In this document: one piece after another, positions 25,887 to 32,118 of the stretch
Layout: each line of letters starts with the position of its first letter
How positions within the stretch are numbered: the first letter of the stretch is position 1
Virus record (IMG/VR): IMGVR_UViG_641736163_000005
Source: a virus
Lineage: Duplodnaviria > Heunggongvirae > Uroviricota > Caudoviricetes
Length of the DNA: 32,118 bases
Strand: one strand, 5' to 3'
Notes under the pieces: model-generated
Told to the model about the DNA's origin: nothing
The model's input: only the letters and a program-made list of their open reading frames with translations
Database searches by the model: none
Position numbers and translations under genes: made by a program

Positions 25887-26183
25887 TCAGAATTGCATAT
25901 CAATTTGCTTAGCGTCCCCGGCGACCACCGGGGATTTTTTCTTTGTGATTCCATCAAGCGCATACTTAAAAGCCCTGCTAATTGGACTGATGTCTGATGC
26001 CATTCCGAAAGCACACAAGACCGAAGCAATAAATCTCCAGTCCGTTCTGCTTATCTTCGATTCATGACAGCCAATCATCTTTGCCAGACCACGCTGGGTA
26101 AGCGTTGACAGGTTGATGAGTAAATCTGTTTCTGCGCGATCAACGTCACGCTGTGATAGTTTGCTGTAACTTGTTCGTTCCAT
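25887..26183 (-). CDS. cII: CII-like transcriptional activator (non-lambda immunity type)
   Basis: 98 aa between cro and O; HTH-like centre (...QRGLAKMIGCHESKISRTDWR...); C-terminus ...AGDAKQIDMQF resembles lambda CII ...RSEQIQMEF. Confidence 0.7.
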   Translation of the reverse strand: MERTSYSKLSQRDVDRAETDLLINLSTLTQRGLAKMIGCHESKISRTDWRFIASVLCAFGMASDISPISRAFKYALDGITKKKSPVVAGDAKQIDMQF

Positions 26184-26260: not shown

Positions 26261-28214
<1,954 letters not shown>

Positions 28215-28554: not shown

Positions 28555-29262
28555 ATGGTTCAGAATGAAAAAGTGCGCAAAGAATTCGCCCAGCGGCTAG
28601 CGCAAGCCTGTAAAGAAGCTGGTCTTGATGAACATGGTAGGGGAATGGCTATAGCCCGTGCCCTTTCTCTTTCGTCCAAAGGCGTTAGCAAATGGTTTAA
28701 TGCTGAGTCTTTACCGCGTCAGGAAAAAATGAATGCGCTTGCGAAATTTCTAAACGTTGATGTTGTTTGGCTTCAGCACGGCACTTCGTTAAATGGAGCG
28801 AATGATGAAGATACTCTTTCATTTGTTGGCAAATTAAAAAAAGGGTTAGTGCGCGTGGTTGGTGAGGCAATTCTTGGTGTTGATGGTGCCATCGAGATGA
28901 CCGAAGAACGCGATGGGTGGCTCAAGATTTATAGCGATGATCCAGATGCCTTTGGTCTTCGTGTGAAAGGAGACAGCATGTGGCCCAGAATAAAATCAGG
29001 AGAATATGTACTCATTGAGCCTAACACCAAAGTATTCCCGGGTGATGAGGTGTTTGTCAGAACCATCGAAGGACACAACATGATCAAGATTCTTGGCTAT
29101 GACAGAGATGGAGAATACCAATTTACAAGCATCAACCAAGACCACAGACCAATAACGTTGCCTTATCATCAAGTAGCAAAGGTGGAGTATGTGGCTGGTA
29201 TTCTGAAGCAATCTCGCCATCTGGATGACATCGAGGCAAGGGAGTGGCTGAGAAATTATTAA
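28555..29262 (+). CDS. cI: CI-type prophage repressor (HTH plus LexA-like S24 peptidase domain)
   Basis: 235 aa from MVQNEKVRKEFAQRLAQACKEAGL...; C-terminal GDSMWPRIKSGEYVLIEP and KILGYD... resemble S24 Ser/Lys dyad regions. Confidence 0.8.
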   Translation: MVQNEKVRKEFAQRLAQACKEAGLDEHGRGMAIARALSLSSKGVSKWFNAESLPRQEKMNALAKFLNVDVVWLQHGTSLNGANDEDTLSFVGKLKKGLVRVVGEAILGVDGAIEMTEERDGWLKIYSDDPDAFGLRVKGDSMWPRIKSGEYVLIEPNTKVFPGDEVFVRTIEGHNMIKILGYDRDGEYQFTSINQDHRPITLPYHQVAKVEYVAGILKQSRHLDDIEAREWLRNY

Positions 29263-29428: not shown

Positions 29429-29791
29429 GTGACCCAAGATGAAACGAATGAATATCTGAAAACCTTAGCATTGGTTCCAAGTGCAGAGGCCTCCGCAGAG
29501 GAGAAGCAGATATATAGCGTCAAAAAGGCTGTAATCGGTCTGATTGAATTTGTTACAACCAGTCTTGAAGAGCTTGGAATTGAAGGGTTGCATGAGTTAA
29601 CCAACCCATCTCTTGACGAATTAGATGCAGAGCTAGAGAAACTTGACCAAAAAGCTGATGCAATCAATGAACTAAACTTAAAGCAAATCATCATATTTGC
29701 ACAGATTTTAATCAAAAACATAAGAGAAAAGAATCCTGATTTGTGCTCTGAGGGATCAAAACTACTCAAGAGTGCTAAATCGGGTCTTTGA
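29429..29791 (+). CDS. hypothetical acidic helical protein (120 aa) at the rex-equivalent position
   Basis: GTG start with TAAGGAG RBS; AT-rich; no similarity recognised to RexA/RexB or anything else; candidate promoter TTGCAA-17-TATATA at about 29385-29413. Confidence 0.5.
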   Translation: MTQDETNEYLKTLALVPSAEASAEEKQIYSVKKAVIGLIEFVTTSLEELGIEGLHELTNPSLDELDAELEKLDQKADAINELNLKQIIIFAQILIKNIREKNPDLCSEGSKLLKSAKSGL

Positions 29792-29814
29792 CACTTACAG
29801 AGCGGAGGATAAAC

Positions 29815-29937
29815 ATGTCTAGAACTGAACATATCAAAGATATGCTTAAAAGTGCGGATCGAATCAATCAGATTATTGCTGAAATGAAGCAGAGAAAAGC
29901 AGAAATGCTAGCATCAAAGCTTCCAATGGCAGCATAA
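29815..29937 (+). CDS. hypothetical 40-aa protein, second gene of rex-position cassette
   Basis: ATG with GGAGG RBS (MSRTEHIKDMLKSADRINQIIAEMKQRKAEMLASKLPMAA); terminator immediately downstream. Confidence 0.35.
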   Translation: MSRTEHIKDMLKSADRINQIIAEMKQRKAEMLASKLPMAA

Positions 29938-29945
29938 CCAAAAAC

Positions 29946-29968
29946 ACCCGCTTCGGCGGGTTTTCTTA
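29946..29968 (+). terminator. intrinsic terminator after rex-position cassette
   Basis: ACCCGC-TTCG-GCGGGT hairpin followed by TTTTCTT. Confidence 0.6.
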
Positions 29969-30304
29969 TTCCCCTAAAAAGATCAAACAACTCCACATTA
30001 GCTTTTTTGTGCCCACAGTTTTCTACCTAGCAGTTTTCTTTGCCTCCCGATCCACCATCTAAAAACACATAACCAATTGTATTTATTGAAAAATAAATAG
30101 ATACAACTTGCTAAACCACGCAATTCTGATCCCTGCCGCATAACCTTCATCCGCAACATTTACAAAAATAAATTTCCTTATATATCAAAATCATATTTCG
30201 TAGAGTTAATAAACCACAAACGATTCGTACCAATAGTTCTTGATAATATCGAACTATTAGTTCATCATTATCACCATCAGCAGGACGTTGGAAGCCAAAC
30301 GGAA

Positions 30305-30340
30305 CAGATTGGCAGGCTCTTTAACTTCGATGGCGCGCTG
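30305..30340 (+). promoter_or_regulatory. nutL: nutL (boxA GCTCTTTAAC plus boxB hairpin GCGCGCTGACAAAGCGCG)
   Basis: boxA-like element then a boxB-like stem-loop with GACAAA loop, about 130 nt upstream of N; resembles my recollection of P22-type nut sites. Confidence 0.6.
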
Positions 30341-30468
30341 ACAAAGCGCGAACAGATACCAAACGAGATGGGTTTGGCGGTGATGTGAATTGCAGCAGCA
30401 ACGACAGCAACCAGAAGATCAGCATCTGACTCATCACCACCAAAGCCATTTCACATAAGGAAAATATC

Positions 30469-30777
30469 ATGACGGTAATCGTGTACGGAAAATCAACATT
30501 TGCAGGAAATGCCAAAACTCGCCGCCATGAGCGGCGCAGAAAGCTGGCTATCGAGCGTGATGCTATATGCAACATCATCGATTCGATCTTCGACACAGAC
30601 AGTGAGGAACCTGTTCAGGAAGAGCAGAAAAAGCGTTTAAGTCTTTCTGAAAAAGCAATATCACTCGGAAACCTTCGCTGCAAGAAAGAAGATGAATGCA
30701 GTGGAAGTATTTGCCTACCAAACGTAGCTCTTTACGCGGCAGGCTACCGGAAATCCAAACAACTGACAGCAAGATGA
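30469..30777 (+). CDS. N: N-type antiterminator (P22 gp24-like) with arginine-rich motif
   Basis: 102 aa MTVIVYGKSTFAGNAKTRRHERRRKLAIERDAICNIIDSIF...; ARM TRRHERRRKLAIER; closely resembles recalled P22 gene 24 N-terminus. Confidence 0.8.
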   Translation: MTVIVYGKSTFAGNAKTRRHERRRKLAIERDAICNIIDSIFDTDSEEPVQEEQKKRLSLSEKAISLGNLRCKKEDECSGSICLPNVALYAAGYRKSKQLTAR

Positions 30778-30835
30778 CTTGTGTTGGTCGCCAGAAAATG
30801 AAATTAGGCAGCAAACCACTTATTTGAGGTGATAT

Positions 30836-31285
30836 ATGGAAGAACAGGCAAATAAGATTCTCATAGAACTATTGCAAAAAGCCAGTAATGGAATAGACGC
30901 GGCTGTCTCATTTAGCCAGGCACAGATTCCTGATGTTGTTCATCAGTTGCTGCTATGGAACATGGTTGACAGTCTGATTAAAACATTAATAGCCATTTTA
31001 ACAATCCCGCTGGTTTTCTGGTTTATGAAGAAACAGTACCAAAAAGTTGAAATTGGTAAGTTCGATGATGAAGGATGGTCATGGGATAAGGGGAAGACTA
31101 AATACAAACCGACTATGATTTGGGAAAGTAACGGTGAGATTAGTTTTCTAATCTTACCATTAGCTGCAGTTTTTGTTCTGTGGGTAAGTTTTATTATTGC
31201 TGTAGTAACCAATATGACATGGTTAAAAATTTTGCTGGCTCCAAAGCTTTACCTTATCGAATATGCAGCATCATTGGTTAAGTAA
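30836..31285 (+). CDS. small inner-membrane protein (2 predicted TM helices), possible superinfection-exclusion protein
   Basis: 149 aa; hydrophobic segments IKTLIAILTIPLVFWFM and ISFLILPLAAVFVLWVSFIIAVV; AT-rich; follows N; terminator downstream. Confidence 0.5.
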   Translation: MEEQANKILIELLQKASNGIDAAVSFSQAQIPDVVHQLLLWNMVDSLIKTLIAILTIPLVFWFMKKQYQKVEIGKFDDEGWSWDKGKTKYKPTMIWESNGEISFLILPLAAVFVLWVSFIIAVVTNMTWLKILLAPKLYLIEYAASLVK

Positions 31286-31289
31286 TTTC

Positions 31290-31315
31290 AGGCCGCATAG
31301 TCGGCCTTTATTTTT
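31290..31315 (+). terminator. intrinsic terminator after membrane-protein gene
   Basis: AGGCCG-CATAGT-CGGCCT hairpin followed by TTATTTTTGG. Confidence 0.55.
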
Positions 31316-31420
31316 GGCACTAACAACAGAATAAACACTGCACTGTGTATTCATTCCAACGAGTGGGTGATGCTGCCAACTTACTGATTTAGTGTATGAT
31401 GGTGTTTTTGAGGTGCTCCA

Positions 31421-31696
31421 GTGGCTTCTGTTTCTATTAGCTGTCCCTCCTGTTCAGCTACTGACGGGGTGGTGCGTAACGGCAAAAGCACCGCCGGACA
31501 TCAGCGCTATCTCTGCTCTCACTGCCGTAAAACATGGCAACTGCAGTTCACTTACACCGCTTCTCAACCCGGTACGCACCAGAAAATCATTGATATGGCC
31601 ATGAATGGCGTTGGATGCCGGGCAACTGCCCGCATTATGGGCGTTGGCCTCAACACGATTTTACGTCACTTAAAAAACTCAGGCCGCAGTCGGTAA
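31421..31696 (+). CDS. insA: IS1 InsA (copy 2)
   Basis: Identical 91-aa InsA. Confidence 0.95.
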
Positions 31697-32118
31697 CCTC
31701 GCGCATACAGCCGGGCAGTGACGTCATCGTCTGCGCGGAAATGGACGAACAGTGGGGCTATGTCGGGGCTAAATCGCGCCAGCGCTGGCTGTTTTACGCG
31801 TATGACAGTCTCCGGAAGACGGTTGTTGCGCACGTATTCGGTGAACGCACTATGGCGACGCTGGGGCATCTTATGAGCCTGCTGTCACCCTTTGACGTGG
31901 TGATATGGATGACGGATGGCTGGCCGCTGTATGAATCCCGCCTGAAGGGAAAGCTGCACGTAATCAGCAAGCGATATACGCAGCGAATTGAGCGGCATAA
32001 CCTGAATCTGAGGCAGCACCTGGCACGGCTGGGACGGAAGTCGCTGTCGTTCTCAAAATCGGTGGAGCTGCATGACAAAGTCATCGGGCATTATCTGAAC
32101 ATAAAACACTATCAATAA
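31615..32118 (+). CDS. insB: IS1 InsB frame (copy 2, canonical C-terminus)
   Basis: 167-aa frame ending ...[20 protein letters not shown] with TAA at 32116-32118. Confidence 0.9.

Follow-up and report, generated by a model that had tools for sequence, protein, structure and literature searches.

The window examined here is a stretch of 32,118 nucleotides from a virus of the class Caudoviricetes (IMG/VR record IMGVR_UViG_641736163_000005). Downstream of the antiterminator gene N it carries an open reading frame (ORF) of 149 codons, whose product has two hydrophobic helices. This ORF is a real gene under purifying selection, which is strongest on both tails of the protein. Its family, PHROG 3054, is already catalogued and functionally uncharacterised, and the window gene shows no new principle yet. 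Sequence and genomic context point to a small inner-membrane accessory protein of lytic growth rather than of the lysogen. An initial annotation had proposed superinfection exclusion or abortive infection, naming SieB as a precedent. Computation neither supports nor rules out the guess as a whole, and it disfavours the half that invokes SieB and abortive infection.

The gene is taken to be real because its relatives remain intact and are under constraint. Among 82 full-length relatives from viral contigs and annotated records there are 58 distinct nucleotide sequences. All 58 are intact and end in a stop codon, and pooled over them by the Nei-Gojobori method the ratio of non-synonymous to synonymous substitution rates (dN/dS) is 0.24. 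In the window the ORF runs from an ATG to a TAA at exactly the coordinates first given for it (Table 1). It is also as AT-rich as had been noted, with a G+C content of 37.1%, where N has 46.0% and the window as a whole 50.9%.

By its profile match, the window protein is an ordinary member of PHROG 3054. Residues 1-149 align with profile positions 1-137 of 137 (E 8.9e-60), and the same profile is matched by 100 of 100 diverse representatives of the family. Searched with a profile, 1.84 billion cluster representatives yielded 2,472 clusters at E<=1e-3 and 1,105 under the stricter cut-off of E<=1e-10, which puts the size of the family at no fewer than 2,472 clusters at 50% identity. The profile matches listed are all 70-184 residues long, and none is fused to another domain.

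The annotation attached to PHROG 3054 reads 'unknown function'. The initial annotation was right to call the sequence unrecognised. This is the sole family found for it, and Pfam, NCBIfam and PADLOC offer no real match. For the window protein, Pfam gives zero matches at E<=1, NCBIfam a chance match, and the defence models of PADLOC-DB v2 no family at E<=10. The 100 relatives share no consistent Pfam family and show scattered chance matches to transmembrane (TM) families; besides phrog_3054, a PHROG scan assigns them to two small unannotated or generic PHROGs only. A sequence-profile search of the PDB returned chance matches to TM proteins with E values of at least 0.14, and no sequence or fold relative. 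The source names of the more than 150 homologues checked are all 'hypothetical protein', and the literature, searched by family and by accession, holds no publication on any member. LysZ, the subject of a preprint on phages of Corynebacteriales (10.1101/2025.06.24.661397), was considered and set aside as a conceptual parallel only.

Alignments confirm one shared architecture: an N-tail motif, two TM helices and a C-tail motif, APKLYLIEY. The two strong hydrophobic helices of the initial annotation are found at residues ~44-64 and ~104-126, with 19-residue Kyte-Doolittle means of up to 2.0 and 2.8, and a simple hydropathy filter finds exactly two hydrophobic segments in 82 of 100 members. In family alignments the N-tail has the consensus ...G-x-D-x-A-V-x-F-x-Q-A-Q-I-P-D-V-I-x-Q-L-L-x-W, in which P32 is invariant and F26, V34, Q37, L38, L39 and W41 are at least 90% conserved. 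The last ~22 residues follow W-L-x-I-W-x-A-P-K-L-Y-L-I-E-Y-A-A-x-L, where K137 is invariant and I132, A135, P136, L140, E142, Y143, A145 and L147 are at least 90% conserved.

Sequence varies freely in the TM helices and in the loop between them, and the loop can have anything from 12 to 74 residues, depending on the family member. Since some members keep both tail motifs with a loop of as few as about 12 residues, the tails appear to be the working part of the protein. The dN/dS of about 1.1 in the second TM helix suggests a hydrophobic anchor under little sequence constraint. The QLLxW residues of the N-tail were also considered as a beta-clamp-binding motif, which has the form QL[SD]LF. This idea was dropped, as the spacing is unlike that of the clamp motif and the residues abut the first TM helix.

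Evidence for the topology is provided by the distribution of charge. Across the family there are 2.16 lysine or arginine residues per 10 positions after the first TM helix, 0.54 before it and 0.52 on either side of the second. The N-tail is net acidic, with a family mean of 2.3 lysine or arginine residues to 6.0 aspartate or glutamate residues. Under the positive-inside rule, this bias indicates an N-out/C-out arrangement. Most likely, both conserved tails lie on the periplasmic side of the inner membrane, with the basic loop in the cytoplasm. An AlphaFold2 model built with a 100-sequence alignment (mean predicted local distance difference test (pLDDT) score 91.7; predicted template-modelling score 0.71) is a helical hairpin: a helix at residues 2-68, a small loop hairpin, a helix at 106-125 and two short C-terminal helices.

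The surroundings of the gene indicate when it would be expressed. As first proposed, it follows N on the transcript of the early-left promoter pL: the two genes are 58 nt apart in the window, and neither a terminator scan nor a fold shows a terminator-like hairpin between them. The position of the candidate pL agrees with that of pL in the annotation of Sf6 and HK639. Upstream of N lies a nutL-like site, whose parts we take to be boxA and boxB from the nut consensus of lambda and P22. The leader ttatttgaggtgatatATG, with its Shine-Dalgarno-like site, is also kept in the relatives L001 and L015 in the flank alignment. A consensus scan of the window found no promoter-like site between pL and the ATG.

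The ORF is followed by a terminator and then by the insertion sequence (IS) IS1, as had been described, which makes it one of two genes that precede the first terminator on the pL transcript. The terminator is the counterpart of the site annotated tL2A in Sf6, and the same hairpin can be found 3' of the gene in Sf6, HF4s, L001, L015 and L023. Lacking any promoter-like site of its own, the gene depends on pL here; the prophage repressor shuts pL, so the gene is predicted to be silent in a lysogen.

Table 1. Features of the window around the PHROG 3054 gene, with the evidence for each.
Feature	Coordinates	Strand	Evidence
Candidate pL promoter, TTGATA-17-CATCAT	30240..30268	+	consensus scan alone, 9/12 matches; weak
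nutL-like site	30316..30350	+	boxA-like GCTCTTTAAC at 30316-25; P22-type boxB hairpin at 30334-50 in fold
Antiterminator gene N, upstream, co-transcribed	30469..30777	+	PF25694 E 4e-41; phrog_271
Shine-Dalgarno-like GAGGTGA	30826..30832	+	GAGG (30826-29) 6 nt before ATG
Coding sequence, two-TM protein, PHROG 3054	30836..31285 (including stop)	+	phrog_3054 E 9e-60; AlphaFold2 mean pLDDT 91.7
N-terminal tail, acidic, conserved (residues 1-43)	30836..30964	+	dN/dS 0.11; predicted periplasmic
TM helix 1 (~residues 44-64)	30965..31027	+	hydropathy; dN/dS 0.15
Variable loop (residues 65-103)	31028..31144	+	dN/dS 0.28; predicted cytoplasmic; lysine and arginine clustered right after TM helix 1
TM helix 2 (~residues 104-126)	31145..31213	+	hydropathy; AlphaFold2 helix 106-125; dN/dS ~1.1
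C-terminal tail, aromatic, amphipathic (residues 127-149)	31214..31282	+	dN/dS 0.07; predicted periplasmic or interfacial
Intrinsic terminator GGCCGCATAGTCGGCC plus T-run, G+C-rich	31290..31316	+	terminator scan; fold -9.7 kcal/mol
IS1 left end, running past the window end	31366..32118	+	InsA domains PF03811 and PF12759 at 31421-31696

Predicted silence in the lysogen bears directly on the narrower idea of the initial annotation, a SieB-like factor that is made from the prophage and protects the lysogen by abortive infection or exclusion. Lysogens express SieB, which works through abortive infection. The window gene occupies the same mosaic slot 3' of N as sieB in lambda-like phages, it is intact in a prophage with two IS insertions, and some of its homologues are moron-like antisense single-gene inserts in structural operons. 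Judged from sequence, however, the gene fails every SieB feature that could be tested, namely profile similarity, strand and a promoter-like site of its own. Neither the window protein nor the 100 relatives match SieB in Pfam at E<=1, an hhalign comparison with lambda SieB gives a probability of 0.1%, and PADLOC has no match. The precedent also needs one correction: lambda sieB (PF14163, E 1e-29) lies antisense to pL, converging on the end of N, and is no part of the pL transcript; its product has a large soluble C-terminal domain, unlike the window protein. One related contig holds both sieB and a PHROG 3054 gene. In addition, pL is repressed in the lysogen, some relatives have a terminator just 5' of the ATG, and the family is common in virulent phages and in late operons. 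Protection of the lysogen in the manner of SieB is very improbable.

Members of the family can be found in about 176 deposited phage records. Among the carriers are Sf6 (gene 34), HK639, HK633, SPN9CC, Oslo, HF4s and Gally. Virulent carriers are Stephanstirmvirinae (phi92 gp220, muut_147 and several BASEL phages), N4-like Schitoviridae (Shigella phage B2, FSL SP-058 and the Vibrio Pariacacavirus), many other Vibrio phages, and Pseudomonas and Rheinheimera phages. In bacteria, megablast detects the gene in 242 of 5,426 complete E. coli genomes. When genomes are taken at species level, prophage copies occur in Enterobacterales, Pseudomonas and Thalassotalea, and among betaproteobacteria in Pusillimonas, Achromobacter, Castellaniella and Uliginosibacterium.

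Across these phages the gene is a mobile cassette of one gene, and it occupies the places where phages of many types usually carry accessory genes. In lambdoid phages it is always on the pL strand and has a fixed place in the order cI - N - (Sf6 gene 36) - (ral) - family gene - terminator - boundary sequence - (ea10 or Sf6 gene 33) - cIII - kil - gam. Lambda-like phages fill the slot behind N or ral with sieB, ral or other genes, and the gap between N and the family gene is down to 8 nt in HF4s. Sf6 and several contigs have one terminator hairpin 25-45 nt 5' of the ATG and another downstream, which implies that only antiterminated transcripts can include the gene there. Such brackets can be located in L097 (2764-2780 and 3504-3519) and L101 (2958-2975 and 3593-3614), and also in Sf6, L023, L090 and L091. 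Terminators on both sides are the reverse of the promoter-gene-terminator layout of classical morons. In the window the downstream terminator of that layout is present, and a simple scan found no upstream promoter-like site.

A second common position is directly after the lysis cassette. Of 37 species-level prophage loci, 11 have the gene there, as do 22 of the 203 loci overall and several viral contigs. The upstream genes there are, by Pfam, holins, M15 endolysins and Rz (PF03245), and the start of the family gene often overlaps the Rz stop. A P2-like prophage of Serratia marcescens carries the gene between X and R, which is the place of Y, K, lysA, lysB and lysC in P2. In this interval (L209 3263-4384) a small ORF with a lipoprotein-like signal (C24) is overlapped in an alternative frame by an ORF that has another signal of this type. 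The interval further holds a small ORF for a soluble product, and the PHROG 3054 gene; neither a holin nor an endolysin is recognisable in it.

A recurrent pair is formed by an ANT/KilAC (sometimes pRha) antirepressor-like gene and a PHROG 3054 gene, with stop and start overlapping or abutting (L142 2752-3950; L210 3306-4387; L211 3300-4384; L212 31-1115). The pair lies between the lysis cassette and terminase in several enterobacterial prophages (Mixta, Pantoea and related contigs), and the family proteins in it are mutually distant.

Finally, the gene can occur as a single antisense gene within a structural operon, as in a Pseudomonas lundensis prophage, a Rahnella prophage and Vibrio phage K367. 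Such inserts (L097, L101, Vibrio phage K367) must carry their own promoter, and a simple scan of the three did not find one. In K367 the PHROG 3054 gene is the lone plus-strand gene among minus-strand tail genes. In virulent phages the gene lies amid early or middle genes without a conserved neighbour. A conserved partner gene was not found: the genes that follow it in Sf6, muut, Shigella phage B2 and a Vibrio phage bear no relation to one another, and neighbour clustering yields positional associations only, with Rz upstream or ANT upstream. One neighbour, gp84 of Shigella phage B2 (L006 4473-5462), has collagen triple-helix repeats (PF01391, E 8e-23) and a YadA-like outer-membrane anchor (PF03895, E 1e-19); an anchor of this trimeric-autotransporter type is unusual in a phage.

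Dependence on pL, bracketing by terminators, and the existence of members in virulent phages and in late operons together suggest that the product is used in lytic growth. The function ranked first, tentatively and by analogy with T4 Imm, is exclusion or envelope guarding during that growth. The 149-codon gene would be transcribed from pL together with N during lytic development. Its product would be anchored in the inner membrane by the two hydrophobic helices, inserted N-out/C-out, so that the acidic N-terminal helix and the aromatic C-terminal helix come together at the periplasmic face while the variable basic loop stays in the cytoplasm. This periplasmic module could then guard the inner membrane of the infected cell against a second DNA entry or an envelope insult, in a way that resembles T4 Imm. 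Wasteful superinfection, and a premature depolarisation that might trigger the holin, would thereby be prevented. We infer the topology, the time of action and the exclusion function alike.

In favour of an Imm-like guard are the conserved module, predicted to face the periplasm on a two-helix anchor, and the accessory-gene behaviour of the family, with its use of the N/ral slot, the lysis-terminase gap, antisense inserts and virulent phages. Where a role is known for a small phage inner-membrane protein encoded at such a position, it is mostly that of an exclusion factor (T4 Imm, P22 SieA, HK97 gp15). Several points weigh against it. The exclusion role is itself a proposal by analogy, and the predicted topology is founded on charge statistics. 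Pfam, PADLOC and hhalign revealed no homology to known exclusion proteins: none of the 100 members matches the Imm family (PF14373), and hhalign gives a probability of 0.3% against the PF14373 protein of Vibrio phage K367 and of 0.2% against lambda RexB. Known exclusion proteins are usually narrow and fast-evolving, whereas the tails of PHROG 3054 are nearly invariant from Vibrio phages to those of Alcaligenaceae and across podo-, sipho- and myoviruses. This is the main objection: invariance across unrelated injection machines and distant hosts is better explained by self-assembly or by a partner conserved among hosts than by a phage-specific injection apparatus. At about 30% of the species-level loci, moreover, the gene is fused onto a late lysis operon, which is late for exclusion and suggests a link to lysis.

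The last point leads to a different reading, in which the protein modulates lysis timing: its periplasmic tails would act on a membrane-anchored lysis protein, as an antiholin-like brake or a lysis-inhibition sensor. The 11 of 37 species-level loci directly after holin, endolysin and Rz/Rz1 argue for this, as the overlap with the Rz stop implies late co-expression. So do the close kinship of the post-lysis members L021, L088 and L142 to the window protein (73-87% identity) and the position of the P2-like Serratia copy in the X-R lysis interval. T4 rI is made early, so early expression is compatible with a role in lysis timing.

Yet the partner types at these loci are unrelated (Phage_holin_8, holin_3_7, holin_3_2 and holin_2; M15 peptidase and lysozyme) despite the invariant tails, and the cassettes already have complete Rz/Rz1 pairs. 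Most loci are far from lysis genes; in the window these genes, identified by position alone, are ~14 kb away. The gap between lysis genes and terminase is moreover a common site for accessory genes, where ANT and KilA-N genes adjoin the family gene. The hhalign probability against P2 LysA is 0.1%, no holin family appears among the Pfam matches of the 100 members, and their PHROG matches include no holin, antiholin or described anti-defence protein. Control of lysis timing is rather unlikely. A related idea, replacement of a missing o-spanin, was ruled out, as an embedded ORF for an Rz1-type lipoprotein is present in 10 of 10 lysis cassettes checked.

The invariance of the tails can also be explained by host takeover, in which they bind, inhibit or redirect an envelope machine conserved in Gamma- and Betaproteobacteria. 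Division, peptidoglycan synthesis, Tol/Ton, envelope-stress sensors and the FtsH complex would be examples of such a machine. Extreme conservation of the tail motifs across hosts and phage types without a common injection or lysis apparatus fits this well, as does the presence of the gene in both temperate and virulent phages. The terminator brackets of several lambdoid relatives limit expression to antiterminated transcripts, as expected of a product harmful to the host, and the pL operon to which lambdoid copies belong also includes cIII and kil, which are directed at the host. On the other hand, no result points to a target, neither a fusion nor a conserved partner gene was found, and the intactness of 58 of 58 variants gives no sign of counter-selection. 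Host takeover is, to the same degree as control of lysis timing, rather unlikely, and both are close competitors of the Imm-like guard.

Counter-defence is less probable still. Here the protein would neutralise a membrane-acting abortive-infection system of the host or of a prophage. It is an accessory gene among the earliest expressed, it adjoins the anti-restriction gene ral in Sf6 and many relatives, and its occurrence in virulent phages is sporadic, all of which would suit such a role. The invariant motifs and wide host range are at odds with the patchy distribution of any single defence system, copies in late operons would come too late, and PHROGs show no likeness to anti-defence proteins. 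This role is quite improbable.

The window also contains two IS elements. IS1 sits inside a conserved boundary sequence after the terminator, where homology to Sf6, HF4s and many relatives ends at ...ccaacgagtg, and it splits N and the 149-codon ORF from the remaining early-left operon, which lies beyond the window end. An IS100-like element of the IS21 family (26322-28214) is 99% identical to a copy in E. coli SLK172 and encodes IstA (rve) and IstB (PF01695, E 8e-112). It stands between cII (25887-26183, minus strand) and a cI-like gene, the expected place of cro and the right operator. The two insertions suggest that the prophage is probably defective.

When the repressor gene (28809-29257) is compared with L001 (3979-4427), only the C-terminal Peptidase_S24 part is homologous to the repressor of the SLK172 prophage (95%). 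In the operator region and the N-terminal part, which binds DNA, the window departs from that prophage, so the two prophages have different immunity specificities.

Directly 3' of the cI-like gene and 5' of pL lie two AT-rich ORFs of 120 and 49 residues (29429-29937, plus strand; 38-39% G+C), closed by a bidirectional terminator at 29946-29961. They are at the position of rexA and rexB in lambda and may be co-transcribed with the repressor in a lysogen. Neither has a Pfam family, and PADLOC gives weak, non-significant matches to AbiEi (E 0.004) and JetA (E 0.011). From their place, these two ORFs look like better candidates for a lysogen-expressed exclusion or defence function than the 149-codon ORF.

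Few phage genes are understood as poorly as those for small membrane proteins. A large, motif-conserved family that moves across lifestyles and morphologies is likely to serve a general step in the infection of Gram-negative hosts rather than a strain-specific trick. This step could be exclusion, the timing of lysis or a manipulation of the host envelope. It is possible, if doubtful, that PHROG 3054 is a new and widespread class of inner-membrane effectors, whose invariant periplasmic tails bind some envelope component that is conserved in Gamma- and Betaproteobacteria and either seal the cell against DNA entry or set the timing of lysis. If this is true, lambdoid, P22-like, P2-like, N4-like, phi92-like and Vibrio phages share one generic mechanism, and one that has no relation in sequence or fold to Imm, SieA, SieB, RI or LysA. 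The family is readily testable, being carried by Sf6, HK639, phi92 and phages of the BASEL collection.

The window protein can be compared with several known systems. From the catalogue entry of PHROG 3054 it does not differ, and no function is attached to that entry. SieB of lambda and P22 (PF14163) is likewise a membrane protein encoded in the mosaic region just 3' of N. It has 184 residues, N-terminal TM segments and a large soluble C-terminal domain, lies on the opposite strand to N and is not homologous. P2 LysA and T4 RI are non-essential small membrane proteins tied to lysis cassettes, and a subset of PHROG 3054 similarly stands at the cassette end. The family differs from them in having no similarity to LysA and no fixed holin partner, and most of its members are away from lysis genes.

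P22 SieA and HK97 gp15 block DNA entry and are, like the window protein, small inner-membrane accessory proteins of lambdoid or P22-like phages. They are expressed from the prophage and confined to narrow phage groups, whereas PHROG 3054 spans many phage types and is here under lytic promoters; profiles and description set them apart, with no cross-match in PHROG or Pfam. The remaining comparison is with T4 Imm (PF14373), which acts at the membrane against a second DNA entry. Vibrio phage K367 g1 (L208) carries an Imm-family gene (PF14373, E 3e-9) at 266-460 and a PHROG 3054 gene at 3001-3405, ~2.5 kb off, which indicates that the two are not mutually exclusive. The window protein has no sequence or profile similarity to Imm, is about twice as long and has a conserved N-tail of 43 residues. 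What the two have in common, and what makes Imm the working analogy, is that each is a small phage inner-membrane protein which is made, or in the case of the window protein probably made, in lytic infection and not from a prophage, and which can also be found in virulent phages.

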